From an uncultured archaeon (GTDB taxonomy: Archaea > Asgardarchaeota > Lokiarchaeia > Sigyniarchaeales > SOKP01): a stretch of 64,000 nucleotides of DNA. The translations under genes and the position numbers were made by a program. Positions 7,562 through 40,106 of the stretch are shown one piece after another. The notes beneath the pieces were generated by a model. That model had not been told where the DNA came from and made no database searches. It saw nothing but the letters and a program-made list of their open reading frames with translations. Location: the NCBI GenBank assembly GCA_964632315.1, contig CAZWEM010000002.1, positions 64,001 through 128,000 of the forward strand, given 5' to 3'. The first letter of the stretch is position 1. Each line of letters begins with the position of its first letter.

Positions 7562-7665
7562 CGCAGATGGAGGGATTTGAACCCCCGCGCGCTTTCACGC
7601 ACCAGCTTTCCAAAGTTTTTAAAAAACTCCTCGAGGCTGGCGTCTTACCACTAGGCTACATCTGC
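7562..7665 (-). tRNA. tRNA-Ser(CGA) with 22-nt intron at canonical 37/38 (7629..7608)
   Basis: Acceptor GCAGATG/CATCTGC, discriminator G, anticodon stem CCAGC/GCTGG, loop CT-CGA-G^A, long variable arm, T-loop TTCAAAT; no encoded CCA. Confidence 0.92.
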
Positions 7666-27434: not shown

Positions 27435-29342
27435 TTAAAAAAGATATTTCATCAAATCTAGCTCTTGTAGTTTAGATTTTAAAGGTATTCCAGTAGCTGT
27501 ATCCCAACCACGTTCATCATAGTAATCATCCAATAATTGATTTGCGATTTTTGGAGTAATCTGCACATTTCCATAAAAGTCATATAATTCCAAGTTATTT
27601 TCTCCGTACTTTAAAGGCTTAAACCAATTATTTGGGAATCTATCATCTTTTCGAGAGAATCCTTCATTCACGTTAAGGATTTTTAATAAGTTCCACGACC
27701 TTTCGGCAGCTAAAATAAGTTCTTCCCTACTTGACTCAAATCCAGTAATTAGGTTGTAAAATTCAGTCACTAAATCCAAGCTATAAAATCGATTCATTTG
27801 GGCTCTAGCACATAAACCCAATGAAGTTAACACAGTATACCAATCTTCTGAATACCTTGTTAAGCGCCCTACATTTATGAACATCTCTGCTTTAGGAGGT
27901 TTGAATATTCTTTCATGTGCATTTCTTGGAATGCCCATTCTATCAAAATGTGATTTCATTTTTCCTAAACCTCCTCCAGCTCCTACATAAGTTGGAGAAC
28001 CTCCAGAAGCTACGTGTGCACCTTTTGGGTTTACAACTTGCTCGAATTCCATCGTTCCAAGTTTTAAAAAGCGAGGTTCAAAAACTACATCTAATCCTTT
28101 AACCGTGAGTTTTTCTTCTTCAAAATTATCATCTACTTGTTTAACGTTAGCCCAGCCCTTTGCAATTATATCTCCTATTCCCTCCTTATATGTAATAAGT
28201 CCGATAAGCTTTTTAAAAGAAGAAAAATCTTCTTTCCATTCAAATCCAAGATCTTCATTCGAAAGTTCATCTTTTTTTACCATTTTGGAGATAATGTCGA
28301 CTAATGAAGTCATAGTGAGCGAATCTAAGCCGTATCGACTGATTAAGTCATAAATTTTGATTGCTTCTGAATATGATTTCAAACAATCACTAGTTAACAT
28401 CAAAAAAGGATTGATCACTGAGGATGTATAGTTAATTAATCCGTTAAATTCACCTTCTCTTATTTCAAGTATGTCTTTATCTGCCATTGGACATGTAGGA
28501 CAAGCAAATCTTCTTTTCTTTATCATTTTAAGATAGTTCCGATCATTACATTGCCTAGCTTTCCTTTTTTCTCCTTTAGCATTCAAAATCATTCCAACAG
28601 GTAAACTTCTAAGCATCCCTAATTCGATCCATGATTCACGTTGAGGATAATTTCTTATTCTTTCGATAAAAGTTTGATATTTTACCCGAAATTCTTTTGG
28701 ATATGCTATTTCAATTCCATTACTTCCACGTACCACAATAGCTTTTAGGTTTTTGGACCCCATTACTGCCCCTAATCCACCGCGTCCAAAAGTAGACGTT
28801 TTATCGATGAGAGTTAGAGCACCATAAACTTTATTTTCACCTGCTTGTCCAATTGCTATGACTCCACAATCTTTATAGTTTTTCCACATAAAGTCAGTAG
28901 TAAAAATAATGTCTTTTCCCCAGAGATCTTTCGCTTCAACTAATTCAATTTGATTATTGGTTATCATTAAATAGGAAGGTTTCTCTAATCTTCCAGAAAT
29001 AATTAAGTGATCATATCCAGCTTGTTTTAATTGAAATCCAAAACTCATTCCTCCACAGACATTAGCAATTGCTCCTGATGCTGGAAATTTAGTTATACCT
29101 GTTGTTCTTGAAGAGCCAGGCATTATTGTACCAACTAAAGGTCCAGTGCCAATAATGATTGGATTTTCGGGAGAAAAGGGATCTAATTGAGGTTTTAAGC
29201 GTTCTGCTGCTAATAAGCAGTTTATACCCATCCCTCCAATAAATTTTTTTAAATCTTCGAATTTCTCTTTTTGAGTTTTTATCTTGTTGTTTGAAAGATC
29301 TATATCGAGAATGTTCCCAGTATATCCTTTAAAATTCATCAT
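27435..29342 (-). CDS. Aldehyde:ferredoxin oxidoreductase (AOR/WOR) family protein, divergent
   Basis: GYTGNILDIDLS, FIGGMG, IGQAGEN, GRGGLGAVMGSKNLKA, CPTCP, GLC, YYDERGWD..TGIP. Confidence 0.92.
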   Translation of the reverse strand: MMNFKGYTGNILDIDLSNNKIKTQKEKFEDLKKFIGGMGINCLLAAERLKPQLDPFSPENPIIIGTGPLVGTIMPGSSRTTGITKFPASGAIANVCGGMSFGFQLKQAGYDHLIISGRLEKPSYLMITNNQIELVEAKDLWGKDIIFTTDFMWKNYKDCGVIAIGQAGENKVYGALTLIDKTSTFGRGGLGAVMGSKNLKAIVVRGSNGIEIAYPKEFRVKYQTFIERIRNYPQRESWIELGMLRSLPVGMILNAKGEKRKARQCNDRNYLKMIKKRRFACPTCPMADKDILEIREGEFNGLINYTSSVINPFLMLTSDCLKSYSEAIKIYDLISRYGLDSLTMTSLVDIISKMVKKDELSNEDLGFEWKEDFSSFKKLIGLITYKEGIGDIIAKGWANVKQVDDNFEEEKLTVKGLDVVFEPRFLKLGTMEFEQVVNPKGAHVASGGSPTYVGAGGGLGKMKSHFDRMGIPRNAHERIFKPPKAEMFINVGRLTRYSEDWYTVLTSLGLCARAQMNRFYSLDLVTEFYNLITGFESSREELILAAERSWNLLKILNVNEGFSRKDDRFPNNWFKPLKYGENNLELYDFYGNVQITPKIANQLLDDYYDERGWDTATGIPLKSKLQELDLMKYLF

Positions 29343-33882: not shown

Positions 33883-35193
33883 TCACATTGTTATTGAAAA
33901 TGGAAACTCTTGATTAATTTCTATTGGATTCTGATCTGAATCCTTAAATGTGATATCAAAATTTATCTTAAAATCTCCCACTTCTTCAGGTTTTATATTT
34001 AATTCCCATTTCATTTTTTCATTTGATCGTAATGAGTAAATTTGTTTTTCTATTGTTCCACGTATAATTTTTAATTGTTCTGGGAACTTTGCTAACACTT
34101 TCACATCAAGAGCTTCCCCATCACTCTCATTTTCTAAGAGAATTTCTAAGGGAAAAGATTGACCAATAAGAGGAGGTCTTAAGTTCTTTATAGAGATTTT
34201 TAAGGAAGCTGGAGGGGAGATCAATTTTGGTTTGATAATATCTGTCATATATTCACAGGAGATCTTCCCATTAACTTCAAGAGTAATAATAACCGGTCCA
34301 ATATAGGGCTCGTCAAGTTGAAAGTGAGGTTTAAGCGTGAATTCCAAAGATAAATTATGATGGTCTATTGGAATCTCATAGGGTAAACTTGGTTTATTAC
34401 TCAATGCGAGATTATCAGATACTTTCATATTAAGCTTAGTTATTTTTAACTGATCAACTTTATATTCGAAAAAGGAATTATTTGAAATCTTTGATAAAAT
34501 TCCAGCATTTAAGTCTAATTTTAAATGTATGAGATCGTTAGTTGTATATAATTCTTTGTCTAAGTTCAATTCAGACTTGATTCCAATTGCTAATTGAGAT
34601 AGCATTAAAACTTTCTTAAGCAATTCAGTTTCAATTTGAGTAAACTTAAAATTTTCTATATTTTCTACTACTTTTTCAAGCATATTTACATTTTTATCTC
34701 TATTAGCAATGGTGACATCAGTCACTAATTTTACTAATTCATTTTGCTTGAAATATTCATTATCGACCTTCCCTTGATATTTTTTAATAAAGTTAAGACC
34801 ACTTTCTTGTTTAATCTCCACAAACGAACATAAGTATGACAAAACGGGAAATAGAATATAATTGAAATTCTTTTCATTTGAACTCCGTAATTTTGGTATA
34901 ATATTTAGGGCACTTTTATAAAGATGATTGGCTTTTGAATATTTTTCTATCATTAAATAGACATCGCCAGCTAGCTTTAATACTTCTAATACTTCGGAAT
35001 ATTTTTCCATCTCAAGATAGCATTCTGAAGCTTTTAAGAAGCAATCTTTCGCTAACCTATAATCTTTTAGTTCTAAGTAATTAGTTGCTGCTTTGTGATA
35101 CAGCTTACTAGCTTTTTTATATCCTCTTGCTTTAAATAGCTTTTCTGCCTTTAAGACCTTTTCTTTGATTTTAGTTAATGGATCTTTTCCCAT
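33883..35193 (-). CDS. SNAP/TPR-like helical protein with C-terminal Ig-like domains
   Basis: ASKLYHKAATNY...AKDCFLKASECY helical repeats; GQSFPLEILLEN..GEALDV...IKPEEVGDF..ITFKD beta-sandwich. Confidence 0.65.
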   Translation of the reverse strand: MGKDPLTKIKEKVLKAEKLFKARGYKKASKLYHKAATNYLELKDYRLAKDCFLKASECYLEMEKYSEVLEVLKLAGDVYLMIEKYSKANHLYKSALNIIPKLRSSNEKNFNYILFPVLSYLCSFVEIKQESGLNFIKKYQGKVDNEYFKQNELVKLVTDVTIANRDKNVNMLEKVVENIENFKFTQIETELLKKVLMLSQLAIGIKSELNLDKELYTTNDLIHLKLDLNAGILSKISNNSFFEYKVDQLKITKLNMKVSDNLALSNKPSLPYEIPIDHHNLSLEFTLKPHFQLDEPYIGPVIITLEVNGKISCEYMTDIIKPKLISPPASLKISIKNLRPPLIGQSFPLEILLENESDGEALDVKVLAKFPEQLKIIRGTIEKQIYSLRSNEKMKWELNIKPEEVGDFKINFDITFKDSDQNPIEINQEFPFSITM

Positions 35194-35307
35194 AGAATCA
35201 TCATCAATTTAAATTTCAAATATATTGAGATAAGTGATAGATCAATTATTATTTTTTTTTAATTAGGATTTAATTTAGAAATTTAAAGAAAAAAATGAAT
35301 TTGAAAT

Positions 35308-35919
35308 TTAATAAGCCATGAGAATCAAAACAAATGCAACCAAGATTAATGTGCCACTTACTACAAAAAACCAAGTAAATATTACAAAACCGATTATCAA
35401 TACTGTCCACCATGCATAAGGGATTTTGATATTAACTTGAGTAAGTGTTAAAATCAGCACGATAGCAAAAATAATTGCTACAATAGCGCCCCCAATTAAG
35501 AGGGGGTTCCCACTTAACATGCTCATTACAGACTCATAAATGGCATAAATAGCACCTATTAAGGCTACAATCCTTGATGCTGGATAAGGTTTTCTTGTGC
35601 TCATAAATTCGATTAATGCAGCTATAAGTAAGAGTATTCCAACTAGATAGTTTGGACCGACGAGATATTCAACAAGAATTAAGAATAAACCTATGATAAG
35701 CAATATCCACCAAATAAATGGAATTTTGAGTTTATTCATATCGATGATATTCAGTGATCCCCATATGACAAATGCGATAATCAATCCCACTATGCCAAAA
35801 ATAATTGCCAAAACATTTGCAGTATAAAAATAACTGATAGAATCTTTAATTAAAATTAAGGCTCCAATTAATGCTATTACTTTTGGAGCACTAATACCTA
35901 CTCTTGAAGTTTCAACCAT
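35308..35919 (-). CDS. Membrane protein with internal duplication (about 8 TM)
   Basis: Two halves (K/R)xxALIGA...KIP(F/Y)xWW.lliIG; ATG 6 nt after GATGGTGA. Confidence 0.82.
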   Translation of the reverse strand: MVETSRVGISAPKVIALIGALILIKDSISYFYTANVLAIIFGIVGLIIAFVIWGSLNIIDMNKLKIPFIWWILLIIGLFLILVEYLVGPNYLVGILLLIAALIEFMSTRKPYPASRIVALIGAIYAIYESVMSMLSGNPLLIGGAIVAIIFAIVLILTLTQVNIKIPYAWWTVLIIGFVIFTWFFVVSGTLILVAFVLILMAY

Positions 35920-36077
35920 AAAAATTCACCATCAGTATTGAAAGCTAATTTGTAGAAAATAAATTAATACTTAGCTAAAATTAGCATACTTAGTATTTAT
36001 ATTTTTATATTGATAACTTATTAAAACTGGTCAAATTATTATTATAAAATTAAAAAAGAAAATGTAAAATCTTCTTT

Positions 36078-36144
36078 CCGAAACCATTACATTATGGTAC
36101 GTCATCTTATGACTAAAATTTACTCGTAAGATTCATCCATTCGG
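36078..36144 (-). promoter_or_regulatory. Eukaryote-type SECIS element in the 3' UTR of hdrA-mvhD
   Basis: mRNA: AUGG-AUGA-AUCUUACGAGU-AAAUUUU-AGUCAUAAGAU-GA-CGUA-CCAU; AUGA/GA core, 11-nt helix II, apical AAA; AUGA begins 10 nt after the mvhD stop. Confidence 0.88.
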
Positions 36145-36145
36145 T

Positions 36146-36589
36146 TTATTTCTCTTTAGATTCATTTTTAGAATCTAATTTTTTAATCGGGTTTTTACCG
36201 ATATTCTCTATTATCTCAGAAACGCGTGTAACTTCTTGCTGAAATCTTTGACCTTCAGCAGCACTGCAATGAAACATCTGTATGCGATCGGGATCCATAC
36301 CAGCAGCCTTGAGTATCTCACGGGTATACTCCACATTCTTAGCCGCAACTAGGTTACCTGTTTCATAATCACATTCTCCCTCATATCATCCGGCCACGAT
36401 TACCCCATCAGCCCCTTTTCCCATTGCTCTCATCATTAGACTTGGAGTAACTCGTCCAGTACAGTTAATACGTATTGGTCGGATAGTAGCAGGATATTGA
36501 GCTCTAATTGTACCAGCCATATCACCTGCACCATACCCTCACTTCCAACACATGAAAGCAATAATTTTCTTATCATTTTCTACTGCCAT
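36146..36589 (-). CDS. mvhD: Hydrogenase iron-sulfur subunit MvhD/VhuD, selenoprotein with 2 Sec (147 aa)
   Basis: MAVENDKKIIAFMCWK-U-GYGAGDMAG...INCTGRV...GADGVIVAG-U-YEGECDYETGN...; TGA at 36539-36541 and 36386-36388; ATG 5 nt after GAGGTGG. Confidence 0.93.
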
Positions 36590-36602
36590 TTTATCCACCT
36601 CT

Positions 36603-38576
36603 TTAAAGTTCTTCCAGAATTGCATCAATCTGTTTTTCATATTGGGGTTCACGGTAATATCGTAGGGTTATCGCCTCGGAAGGACAATTTGCTAAACAAG
36701 TACCGCATCCTCTACATAAAATCTCATCAACCTCTGCTCCATCTGACTTTAACGTAATGGCATTATATGGACAATTTAACTCACATAATCCGCATTTTGC
36801 ACAGAGTTCCTTGTTAACTGTAGCTCTGATTAATAAGATCCGATATTTATCCTTTCCCATCAAACGTGCTAATGATGATGCAGCAGCTCTTCCCTGTGAA
36901 ATTGACTCGGCGATTGATTTAGGTCCTTGAGCCACTCCAGCTAAAACTATACCGGGAATTTTAGTGTCAATGGGATTTAATCGAGAATGAAATTCTTTAA
37001 AGAAACCATCTTGACTCGTTTCAAGCTTCAATATTTTCCCAATTTTATCAACACCTTTAGCTGGTACCATAGCGCAGGATAAAACGACTAATTCGTATTC
37101 GTATTCTTTTAATCCCTCATTACTAAGCGTGTTTTGTAAAATTACTTTTAGGTCATGTGTTTTCTTATCTTCTTGGATTTTTGAAACATTAGTTCTAATA
37201 TACTTAATCCCCTCTCTTCTTGAGGCAGTATAATACTCTTCATAATCTTTCCCCGCTGCTCTTATATCAATATATGCAACACTAATTTCAGCATCAGGAT
37301 AATGTTGCTTGATCAGTTTTGTGTTTTTTATTGAAATCATGCAACAGACTCCAGCACTACAATAAGTTTGTTTGTTTAAATCCCTTGATCCAACGCATTG
37401 AATGAATAACATTTTCTTGGGAGTTTTTCCATCTGAGGGTCGGACCAGATGTCCAACAGTTGGTCCGTTCGGAGCAAGCATTCGTTCAAGTTTCATCTGA
37501 GTAATTACATTTGGGAAAACGTTATAGCCTAAATACCCCGTCTCAGGTTCATATTCATCCCAACCAGTAGCAACGATAATGGAACCTACCGTTAATTCAA
37601 CGATTTCATCTTGTTGATCGAAATTAATAGCATTTAACTCACATACTTGTGCACATAGTCCACATTTGATACATTTATTCATATCAATTTGAGCTTTTGA
37701 AGGTACGGCTTGTGCAAATGAAACATAAATTGCTTTCCTTGAGTTCATTCCTTCATTAAATTCATTATAACCATATGCTGGACACACCTCAAAGCATGAG
37801 CCACATCCATTACACTCATTAGTTACATACTTCGCCTTCTTTCGTATCTTAATATTGAAATTCCCTACAAATCCCGTTACTTCTTCAACTTCACTATACG
37901 CATAAAGATTGAGGTTTGGAGCCCTAGCAGCTTCTAGCATGACAGGACCAAGTATTCATATACTGCAATCATCAGTTGGGAATGTTCTGTCTAACATAGC
38001 CATTTTTCCACCGATTGTAGTACTCTTCTCGACAAGATGTACTTCAAATCCTTCATCAGCTAAGTCAATGGCTGCTGTCAATCCAGCTACCCCTCCTCCA
38101 ATAATTAATGCTTTTTTAGTAATATCCACTTCTTTTATGAGGATTTTTTCCAATACAGATGCACGAGCTACTCCTGACTTAATTGCATCTTCTGCTGTTT
38201 TCTGAGCTCCAGGTTTATCTTGACGATGAACAAAACTTGCATGCTCACGAATATTTACAAATTCAAGATAGGATGGATCTAAATTCATCGATTCCAGGAC
38301 ACTTTGAAATACTGGCTCATGTGTTTTTGGAGTACATGATGCTACGACTAATCTATTAGCATTACTTTCAATCATCTTTTCTTTAATGAATTCTGCTCCT
38401 GGTTCAGTACAAAGACTGATGTAATCTGAAGCTTCAACGACATTTGGGAGAGTTTTTGAAAATTCGGATAATGCTTTCGTATCAATGATTTCTGCGATGT
38501 TAATACCTCACGCGCAAACAGCGACAAATACACGTATTTCTTCGTTCGTATCACTAGTAGTTTCTGCTTCTACCAT
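36603..38576 (-). CDS. hdrA: Heterodisulfide reductase subunit A (HdrA), selenoprotein with 2 Sec (657 aa)
   Basis: One frame from ATG 38576: VFVAVCA-U-GINIA (TGA 38508-38510), ASCTPKTHE, IIGGGVAG, KTFPT-like RTFPTDDCSI-U-ILGP (TGA 37956-37958), QCVGSRD, CSAGVCC, four ferredoxin Cys motifs. Confidence 0.95.
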
Positions 38577-38745
38577 TGCATATTCACCTTTTTAGTTTTT
38601 TAATTGATCCTCCATTTTTTAGTATTTTATAAAGATCAAGATTGAATAATCAAGTATAAATCTAAAATCTTTTATATATCTTTTATAAGTGATCAAATTA
38701 AAAATCTTTTAATTTTCAAATTAAAGACTTACTTTGGTATTCAAC

Positions 38746-39186
38746 ATGATTTTTAACATACTACAAACAGATGGAAAAATACCTCCCGGAATCTTAATAA
38801 CGTATTCTATACTAGTGGGAGTTGGGTTCATTGTTTCTGTTTTGCTTTTAAAATTAGGATTAAGATTTGTAAAAGCTGAAAGAAGGAAGACTTTCAAATG
38901 GACTGCTATTAGCTTTTTCCTTCAAGTATTGGTAATTTTTATGTTGGGGTCACCGTTCATCTTACTTGGTTTTGCAAATGCAATGAATGATAAAGATCCG
39001 CCAGTGGGCATTATTATCTTTATGGTAGTTATCGCAGTTTTTATCGATATGAACGTTATTAATGTTATTCATCGAACAGGATTGCTTAAATCTTTCTGGC
39101 CTTTCTTATTAATGGCTATTCCTATGGCGGCTACGATTGGATTTGGGATTATGATTGATAGAGTAGGATTATTTATTACGTTCTAA
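38746..39186 (+). CDS. Hypothetical membrane protein (about 4 TM)
   Basis: Four hydrophobic segments; no recognised motif. Confidence 0.75.
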   Translation: MIFNILQTDGKIPPGILITYSILVGVGFIVSVLLLKLGLRFVKAERRKTFKWTAISFFLQVLVIFMLGSPFILLGFANAMNDKDPPVGIIIFMVVIAVFIDMNVINVIHRTGLLKSFWPFLLMAIPMAATIGFGIMIDRVGLFITF

Positions 39187-40106
39187 TTAAGCCTTACTTT
39201 GTTTATTGCTTGATTCATCTTTTCTATTTCGAATCTAGCAGCCTTATCGAATTCAGAGGGGGAATAGTTTTGATATTTGTTATAAGCAAACATGATTCCT
39301 CGAGATGAATTAATTATTCCACCTAATCCTTTTGAATCGAACCCATATTTGATATCTTCGCCGGTTGCGCCTTGCACTCCGTAACCAGGCATTAGGATAA
39401 AGGATTTAGTAAGGATTTTTCTAATTTCCTTTAATTGGGATGGATATGTTGCCCCTACAACAGCTCCAAGGTTAGAATAACCAGAAAATCGATGTAAATT
39501 TTCATTCCACTTATTTAAAAGCTTAGCCATTTGGATGTAATTCCGTTCCAGTTTTAAATTCTCAACCTGAACTTCAGTAGAATCATCATTTACATTATCT
39601 AATCTTATACTGAATAGATCTTGGAATTCAATACTACTCGGATTTGATGTTTTTACTAATATAAATATTCCTTTCTCAAAATAATTCTCAAAATAGGGTC
39701 TTATTGAATCTATTCCAAGATACCCGTTTAGAGTACAAGCATCAGCTTGATAAACGTTAAAAGTTGAATCTGCGTAAGCTTTCGAACTTGATCCGATATC
39801 GTTTCTTTTAGAGTCTAAAATAACGAGTAAGTCTTTCTTATGGGCATAATTAATTGTTTCTTTTAGACAATTAAGGGCATCATATTTTTCGTAGAATGCA
39901 ATTTGAGGCTTTATCACGGGGATTATATCACATGTTCTATCAATTAATGCTTTATTGAATTCTAAAATGATTTGATTTGGTTCTTCATAATAATCAATGA
40001 GAAATTGAGGAATAGTCCCTTCTTTTTCTAAACGAGGGTCCAAACCCATACATACTACGCTATTTTTATCCAGTATTACTTCAATTAAATCTTCAATAAA
40101 CGACAT
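39183..40106 (-). CDS. pyrF: Orotidine-5'-phosphate decarboxylase
   Basis: CMGLDP, KPQIAFYE, ILDSKRNDIGSS, VKTSNPSS, GAVVGATYP, LMPGYGVQG, NSSRGI. Confidence 0.95.
   Translation of the reverse strand: MSFIEDLIEVILDKNSVVCMGLDPRLEKEGTIPQFLIDYYEEPNQIILEFNKALIDRTCDIIPVIKPQIAFYEKYDALNCLKETINYAHKKDLLVILDSKRNDIGSSSKAYADSTFNVYQADACTLNGYLGIDSIRPYFENYFEKGIFILVKTSNPSSIEFQDLFSIRLDNVNDDSTEVQVENLKLERNYIQMAKLLNKWNENLHRFSGYSNLGAVVGATYPSQLKEIRKILTKSFILMPGYGVQGATGEDIKYGFDSKGLGGIINSSRGIMFAYNKYQNYSPSEFDKAARFEIEKMNQAINKVRLN

Follow-up and report, generated by a model that had tools for sequence, protein, structure and literature searches.

A Lokiarchaeia-type hdrA–vhuD selenoprotein gene pair with four UGA codons probably served by one 3' lokiSECIS

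We analysed a two-gene selenoprotein unit, hdrA–vhuD (vhuD is also called mvhD), on a 64,000-nucleotide stretch of DNA (hereafter the window) from an uncultured Lokiarchaeia-type Asgard archaeon (Promethearchaeota; NCBI GenBank assembly GCA_964632315.1, contig CAZWEM010000002.1, forward-strand positions 64,001 to 128,000). The four in-frame UGA codons of the pair appear to be decoded as selenocysteine (Sec) with the help of a single lokiSECIS, a Sec insertion sequence (SECIS) element lying 3' of vhuD, and we put the probability of this reading at roughly 85%. Sharing of one SECIS by both genes is supported by the presence of one SECIS per locus, by hdrA genes that never end in TGA and by a conserved spacer of the kind expected for coupled cistrons. 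The shared-SECIS hdrA–vhuD arrangement itself is already known (PMC4989117, 2016; PMC11227280, 2024). Added here are another well-preserved example and a larger comparative confirmation based on 80 species-level loci. The features that carry the argument are as follows, in window positions.

36603–38576, minus strand: hdrA, start ATG at 38576-38574, stop TAA at 36605-36603, 657 amino acids with Sec23 and Sec207
36590–36602, minus strand: spacer between hdrA and vhuD, 13 nt, AGAGGTGGATAAA, which includes AGAGGTGG, the putative vhuD ribosome-binding site
36146–36589, minus strand: vhuD/mvhD, start ATG at 36589-36587, stop TAA at 36148-36146, 147 amino acids with Sec17 and Sec68
38508–38510, minus strand: UGA of HdrA codon 23, motif VCAUG, 2374 nt upstream of the SECIS AUGA
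37956–37958, minus strand: UGA of HdrA codon 207, motif DCSIU, 1822 nt from the SECIS
36539–36541, minus strand: UGA of VhuD codon 17, motif CWKUGYG, 405 nt from the SECIS
36386–36388, minus strand: UGA of VhuD codon 68, motif GUYEGEC, 252 nt from the SECIS
36102–36136, minus strand: lokiSECIS core (Asgard type I eSECIS-like), with AUGA, a 9-bp helix II, an 11-nt loop and GA

Translated with table 11, the minus strand holds three hdrA fragments and three vhuD fragments, and with TGA read as Sec the fragments in 36078–38576 merge into two intact genes. An earlier note on this DNA, made from the sequence alone, had joined them through the TGA codons at 38508, 37956, 36539 and 36386, placed each TGA at a Cys position of a conserved motif, named the genes hdrA and mvhD and left no room for a SECIS between them. 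All of its coordinates and motifs proved exact, the Pfam, NCBIfam and PDB alignments below agreed with the gene names and Cys positions, and the 13-nt spacer (36602-36590) is indeed too short to hold a SECIS. The Methanothermococcus HdrA crystal structure (5odc_A) aligned with our HdrA over residues 12-654 (E 2.5e-204). This full-length similarity covered the flavin adenine dinucleotide (FAD)-binding thioredoxin-reductase-like domain, two ferredoxin domains and the N-terminal Fe-S domain, and 27/27 Cys/Sec columns were retained. The Pfam domains Fer4 and Pyr_redox_2 were also found, as were matches to the NCBIfam HdrA2 and HdrA models (777 and 599 bits); since these scores lie below the high equivalog cut-offs, the product is classed from its sequence as a HdrA homologue whose role as a coenzyme B-coenzyme M (CoB-CoM) reductase subunit is unproven. 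The predicted vhuD/mvhD product is the iron-sulfur delta subunit of an F420-non-reducing hydrogenase, with matches to Pfam FlpD (PF02662; E 5.3e-43, 146.4 bits against a gathering cut-off of 22.3), NCBIfam VhuD (E 9.7e-44) and the VhuD chain of the M. maripaludis super-assembly (PDB 9sfi_K, E 8e-34). Each cistron has its own start and the two are in different frames. An in-frame HdrA–VhuD read-through fusion was rejected because the frames differ and vhuD is preceded by a ribosome-binding site of its own.

All four TGA codons fell on Cys or Sec columns of the structural homologues. HdrA Sec23 is opposite Cys13, the second Cys of VCHCG in 5odc_A, and Sec207 is opposite Cys197 of DCSIC, the canonical HdrA Sec site (Cys197/Sec197 of methanogen HdrA). 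VhuD Sec17 and Sec68 each face an X in 9sfi_K, where X is the deposited Sec. The chance that four random stops would all land on Cys/Sec columns, which make up ~4% of each protein, is p ~3e-6. For comparison, 80 species-level VhuD relatives (L014-L093), mostly labelled Promethearchaeota, were fetched with their flanks; together with the paralogue in the same genome (L013) and the studied locus these gave 82 loci. TGA was present at both VhuD positions in 82/82 loci, at HdrA codon 207 in every locus that covers it, and at HdrA codon 23 in 66/68 covering loci, the own paralogue among them, with Cys in the other two. Further HdrA Sec sites were found in relatives at positions 56, 81 and 602 (numbering of this protein), giving five positions overall.

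Some of the database labels attached to these relatives look unreliable, several near-identical loci being labelled Odin-, Hod-, Thor- or Hermodarchaeota. In one case (L058, JAWODV010000081.1), a 4.2-kb contig from a metagenome-assembled genome labelled Kosmotogaceae bacterium carries an Asgard-type hdrA–vhuD with a lokiSECIS (63.8 bits), and this is probably a mis-binned Asgard contig.

The fragmentation seen under table 11 is what would be expected if the TGA codons were real stops, in pseudogenes or through assembly errors, and a general reassignment of TGA is a further way to read the in-frame codons. This explanation is effectively refuted, since the same four TGA codons recur at Cys/Sec columns in 80 other species and TGA is an ordinary stop in this genome. 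The frames are intact and highly conserved in relatives. Genome-wide (4.45 Mb, 119 contigs, 33% G+C), TGA terminates 392/1877 long open frames (21%), and the code is therefore not reassigned. A full Sec machinery was also present. This included tRNA-Sec (detected by ARAGORN; Rfam RF01852, 61.3 bits), SepSecS (470 bits) directly adjoining it, EFSec at a distance of 3 kb from tRNA-Sec/SepSecS, for which the best family was the selB model, PSTK, and two SelD genes, each with one in-frame TGA. The genes for tRNA-Sec, SepSecS and EFSec are clustered (G000 C35:1160-6640; loci L001 and L004).

The lokiSECIS core is made up of ATGA (36136-36133), a stem in which 36132-36124 pairs with 36112-36104 through eight standard pairs and one C.A mismatch, an 11-nt apical loop (36123-36113, GUAAAUUUUAG) and GA (36103-36102). 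Its AUGA begins 9 nt 3' of the vhuD TAA, and the corresponding offsets across relatives range from -4 to 17 nt. In the 82-sequence alignment the T, G and A of AUGA, both letters of GA and the loop AAA were invariant, while 9/9 pairs of helix II covaried through compensatory changes, with 90% of cells paired. The 91-nt stretch holding the SECIS folded at -19.5 kcal/mol (z = -3.0). The 82 aligned 3' elements were used to build a covariance model, which, run with filters off over all 64 kb, found one SECIS (36072-36150, 74.6 bits, E ~2e-17), in line with the AUGA-11nt-AAA...GA stem-loop that the earlier note had drawn after mvhD and that was exact. The next-best match (28214-28278, 16.8 bits) was put down to chance; it lies within an open reading frame (ORF) of 639 amino acids without an in-frame TGA. 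Across 86 sources the model gave exactly one strong match for each of the 82 hdrA–vhuD loci, always 3' of vhuD. The same model also picked up the four non-homologous lokiSECIS elements of this genome at 42-57 bits, and it can therefore detect members of the class beyond those from which it was made.

Genome-wide pattern scanning returned six elements of the 9-bp/11-nt type with loops ending in UAG. Two of these lie after hdrA–vhuD pairs (the studied one and the second one, which is on a different contig), one after a Prx-like gene and three after short ORFs that contain TGA. The last three elements (G000 C3:40531-40565, C8:107369-107403 and C14:57651-57685; loci L009, L010 and L012) are preceded by ORFs for a 62-amino-acid membrane peptide (GGGGUGC), a 106-amino-acid product (SESU..SFC) and a 157-amino-acid product (adjacent UU).

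A second SECIS was not found in or 5' of hdrA by the covariance model, pattern, Rfam or GAA_A searches, and the single-SECIS claim of the earlier note thus held within the reach of these searches. No other AUGA-stem-GA pattern occurred on the sense strand of the operon in the genome-wide scan, and the euryarchaeal GAA_A SECIS pattern had no match in 35900-38800. An Rfam search of 35000-39500 at E values up to 10 returned no SECIS family and only chance snoRNA-like matches, a result that shows lokiSECIS to be outside the coverage of the Rfam models and does not speak against the element. Bacterial-type hairpins following the individual UGA codons were rejected, as RNAalifold found no consensus structure in the 60 nt after any of the four UGA codons and gave the same result at control Cys codons. 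These results bear on the alternative that hdrA is recoded through a separate signal of some unrecognised kind, in its coding region or 5' untranslated region (UTR), and that the lokiSECIS serves vhuD only. Methanococcales hdrA does carry its own SECIS (PMC4989117), and the model gave a very weak match 135-178 nt upstream of hdrA (38710-38754, 11.6 bits, E ~2), but that match is at chance level. Against such a signal, no lokiSECIS-like, GAA_A-type or conserved local hairpin was present in hdrA or its flanks, no lokiSECIS-like match was present there in the 80 relatives, and RNAz found no other element in the study of Mariotti et al. 2016 (PMC4989117). Together with the stop codon usage of hdrA described next, this makes a separate hdrA signal improbable.

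Stop codons differed between the two genes. The hdrA stop was TAG in 48, TAA in 33 and TGA in none of 81 loci, compared with TGA at the end of 21% of long frames genome-wide, and this is as expected if the downstream SECIS reaches hdrA. The vhuD stop, by contrast, was TGA in 19/82 loci (23%). Of these 19 loci, 13 gave a strict SECIS match, and there the TGA either overlaps the AUGA or lies immediately next to it; the same closeness was seen by eye in the other six. The TAA and TAG stops of vhuD lie 1-17 nt upstream of the SECIS. Stops that abut the AUGA would be too close for recoding, which fits a minimum UGA-to-SECIS distance. As for an upper limit, the action of a 3'-UTR SECIS in Methanococcus was not strictly bounded by distance over the range up to 679 nt (PMC9622424).

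The layout of the unit is consistent with a single transcript. A pattern of stop, AGAGGTG, 6-7 nt and start was kept in nearly all of 81 loci, and the nearest upstream ORF was divergent in 60/65 related loci. No T5+ run occurs inside the 2.4-kb hdrA–vhuD, whereas one follows within 80 nt of the SECIS core in 71/82 loci. The two genes might instead be carried on separate transcripts, through a vhuD promoter inside hdrA or through processing, with the hdrA UGA codons decoded in trans or inefficiently without a SECIS. We found nothing positive in favour of this, although an internal promoter is conceivable in AT-rich DNA. Coupled cistrons typically have such a short (13-nt) spacer, with a conserved ribosome-binding site following the stop. 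The unit lacks T5+ runs, and two conserved Sec codons in hdrA, one of them as early as codon 23, would carry a heavy cost if no cis signal served them; separate transcripts are accordingly rated as even less probable than a dedicated hdrA signal.

For the shared SECIS, we propose that transcription would start from a promoter in the divergent intergenic region and yield one mRNA comprising hdrA, the 13-nt spacer, vhuD, the SECIS and a T-tract terminator. The four UGA codons (HdrA 23 and 207; VhuD 17 and 68) would be decoded as Sec by Sec-tRNASec and an EFSec of the archaeal/eukaryotic type. The cis signal would be the single 3' lokiSECIS, an AUGA...GA kink-turn that has a stem of 9 bp and an 11-nt loop rich in A and lies within a putative three-way junction. 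Such an element could act at a distance on any ribosome paused at a UGA of the same mRNA, so that the cistron boundary would be ignored and the reach would extend to 2.37 kb. Translation of vhuD would proceed by coupling or re-initiation at the conserved AGAGGTG directly after the hdrA stop. A factor would presumably bridge the SECIS and EFSec; to our knowledge no SBP2 is known from Asgard archaea.

Several points weigh against this proposal. Co-transcription, selenium insertion and the action of one SECIS on both cistrons are what we infer from the sequence, on which a vhuD promoter within the hdrA coding region may also be possible. Were translation coupled to transcription, the leading ribosomes would arrive at UGA23 well ahead of the synthesis of the SECIS, which lies 2.4 kb downstream, and early rounds should therefore terminate. 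The loci behind the 0/81 count of hdrA TGA stops are not phylogenetically independent. The model and pattern searches exclude only SECIS types similar to known ones, and the element is missed by the Rfam models of eukaryotic SECIS even when E values up to 10 are allowed.

The studied pair closely resembles those described previously. Mariotti et al. 2016 (Mol Biol Evol, PMC4989117) reported a Lokiarchaeota HdrA–VhuD tandem with a very short spacer, up to four Sec in HdrA at five positions, and only one lokiSECIS (AUGA, 9-bp stem, 11-nt loop), located after VhuD. They suggested that one SECIS may serve up to six UGA codons over ~2 kb and noted that the HdrA stop was always UAA or UAG. Judged against the pairs in the main text of that paper, ours has the same gene order, two Sec in VhuD and a single SECIS, with no substantive difference; it has four Sec (2+2) compared with up to six, and its loop opens with GUAAA rather than AAAAA. 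The five HdrA Sec positions found across our relatives and the own paralogue match the five possible positions of that study. The shared-SECIS model was repeated for more than 400 Asgard genomes by Huang, Xiao and Zhang 2024 (ISME J, PMC11227280), who describe hdrA-frhD clusters and a type I eSECIS-like element with the same AUGA_GA core, G[U/G]AAA loop variants being listed. The novelty implied by the earlier note was therefore not upheld. The 2016 paper already states that the SECIS is shared, that it reaches over ~2 kb, that HdrA has several Sec and that hdrA does not stop at UGA, and the 2024 paper repeats these points.

More distant systems share parts of the arrangement. In Methanococcales and Methanopyrus the orthologous proteins carry Sec at position 197 of HdrA and at the two VhuD sites, hdrA–vhuD synteny is the same, and one SECIS serves two vhuD UGA codons ~50 codons apart. 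Their SECIS elements, however, are of the euryarchaeal type, with a GAA_A bulge and GC-rich stems, hdrA has a single Sec, and the SECIS is not shared in the manner proposed for Lokiarchaeota (PMC4989117). In Methanosarcina-type HdrA2 (NCBIfam NF040770) HdrA and MvhD are fused. Our HdrA matched positions 2-642 and our VhuD positions 645-774 of this model, that is, consecutive parts, and the bicistron thus corresponds to a split form of the HdrA2 fusion; HdrA2 differs in being without Sec, and the studied unit consists of two cistrons in different frames with their own starts. Eukaryotic SECIS elements, as in Selenoprotein P, likewise form a 3'-UTR kink-turn (AUGA...AA...GA) and act from a distance on several UGA codons, but eukaryotic selenoprotein mRNAs are monocistronic and require SBP2, which Asgard archaea are without, and Selenoprotein P has two SECIS elements. 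A eukaryote-like SECIS without SBP2 in the archaeal lineage closest to eukaryotes bears on the origin of the eukaryotic Sec system. Four stop codons, in two proteins with separate initiation and at distances of up to 2.4 kb, are apparently recoded by a single RNA element, and the arrangement bears on how a 3' signal can reach a ribosome far away. We found no experimental test of an Asgard SECIS in the literature searched.

The SECIS core appears to be part of a larger structure.

36078–36144, minus strand: putative three-way junction, with a basal helix, a kink-turn arm (the SECIS) and a 3' side hairpin

The basal helix is formed by CCGAA (36144-36140) and UUCGG (36082-36078), and the side hairpin (36098-36083, ACCAU-AAUGUA-AUGGU) lies 3' of the SECIS arm. 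Below the kink-turn, G36138, two bases before the AUGA, pairs with C36101, after the GA, and this pairing was kept in 78/78 aligned rows; inspection by eye showed a U-A closing pair in the relative L062 and an A-U pair in the SECIS of contig C8. With the intervening bases as a 3-nt bulge, the predicted G-C pair makes this a canonical kink-turn. In the alignments the side hairpin was 89-92% paired, with compensatory changes and a G-pyrimidine in its loop. The basal helix was 76-78% paired, which is an underestimate, as ~37 sequences were out of register in the MAFFT and model alignments because the 5' linker is either 4 or 5 nt long. A greedy parser for the hairpin and basal helix had a weak control, 31% of shuffles passing, and kink-turn-constrained folding was used instead; it recovered the junction in 69/83 unique elements compared with 13% of flank-shuffled controls. 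A hairpin directly 3' of the GA could be drawn for 6/6 lokiSECIS elements of the genome and was in the constrained minimum-energy structure of five of them.

These observations raise the prospect that the functional signal is the whole conserved three-way junction (basal helix, G-C-closed kink-turn arm and side hairpin) and not a simple hairpin, a suggestion we make tentatively and rate at slightly under even odds. With the 3' side hairpin inserted on the non-bulged strand, the layout may be k-junction-like. The model of Huang et al. 2024 (PMC11227280) comprises an upper stem, an internal loop and a lower stem, to which the studied element adds a third arm; their main text reports neither nucleotide conservation around the core nor a third arm, and neither the basal helix nor the side hairpin of the junction is described in the main texts of PMC4989117 and PMC11227280. 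If the suggestion is true, the extra arm could dock an archaeal SECIS-binding factor that enables recoding across two cistrons and 2.4 kb.

The HdrA Sec sites may also have a common structural setting. The N-terminal domain has four Cys, to which positions 23, 56 and 81 contribute three, and position 207 corresponds to Cys197, which in methanogen HdrA is a ligand of the N-terminal [4Fe-4S] cluster of the partner subunit (PMC9012536). On this basis, four of the five Asgard HdrA Sec sites (23, 56, 81 and 207) may converge on one [4Fe-4S] cluster. This differs from the account of Mariotti et al. 2016, which predates the structure and whose main text termed the HdrA Sec positions non-ligands. In M. 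maripaludis HdrA, Sec197 is part of a Cys-Sec pair proposed to relay electrons between the N-terminal cluster and FAD (PMC13518236).

Candidate expression signals around the unit, and the gene upstream of it, were as follows.

38624–38633, minus strand: candidate archaeal TATA box, TTTATAAAAT, in the 157-nt divergent intergenic region 5' of hdrA
~38669-38690: second candidate TATA box, in the same intergenic region
38584–38588, minus strand: Shine-Dalgarno-like GGTGA, 7 nt 5' of the hdrA ATG
38734-39186, plus strand: upstream neighbour gene, divergent from hdrA
36052–36057, minus strand: T6 run, 44 nt 3' of the SECIS GA, a candidate archaeal intrinsic terminator

The putative hdrA leader also contains a 7-codon upstream ORF (38594-38614, minus strand; ATG GAG GAT CAA TTA AAA AAC TAA). 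The flanking genes, encoding a TPR protein, a membrane protein, an orotidine monophosphate (OMP) decarboxylase, a flavodiiron-like protein and a GltD-like oxidoreductase, are unrelated to the pair, and the hdrA–vhuD unit therefore stands alone, without adjoining hdrBC or mvhAG. Elsewhere in the window, a tRNA match of 104 nt (7562-7665, minus strand) is probably intron-bearing. ARAGORN with default settings detected only 11 tRNAs genome-wide, which suggests that many tRNAs in this genome have introns.

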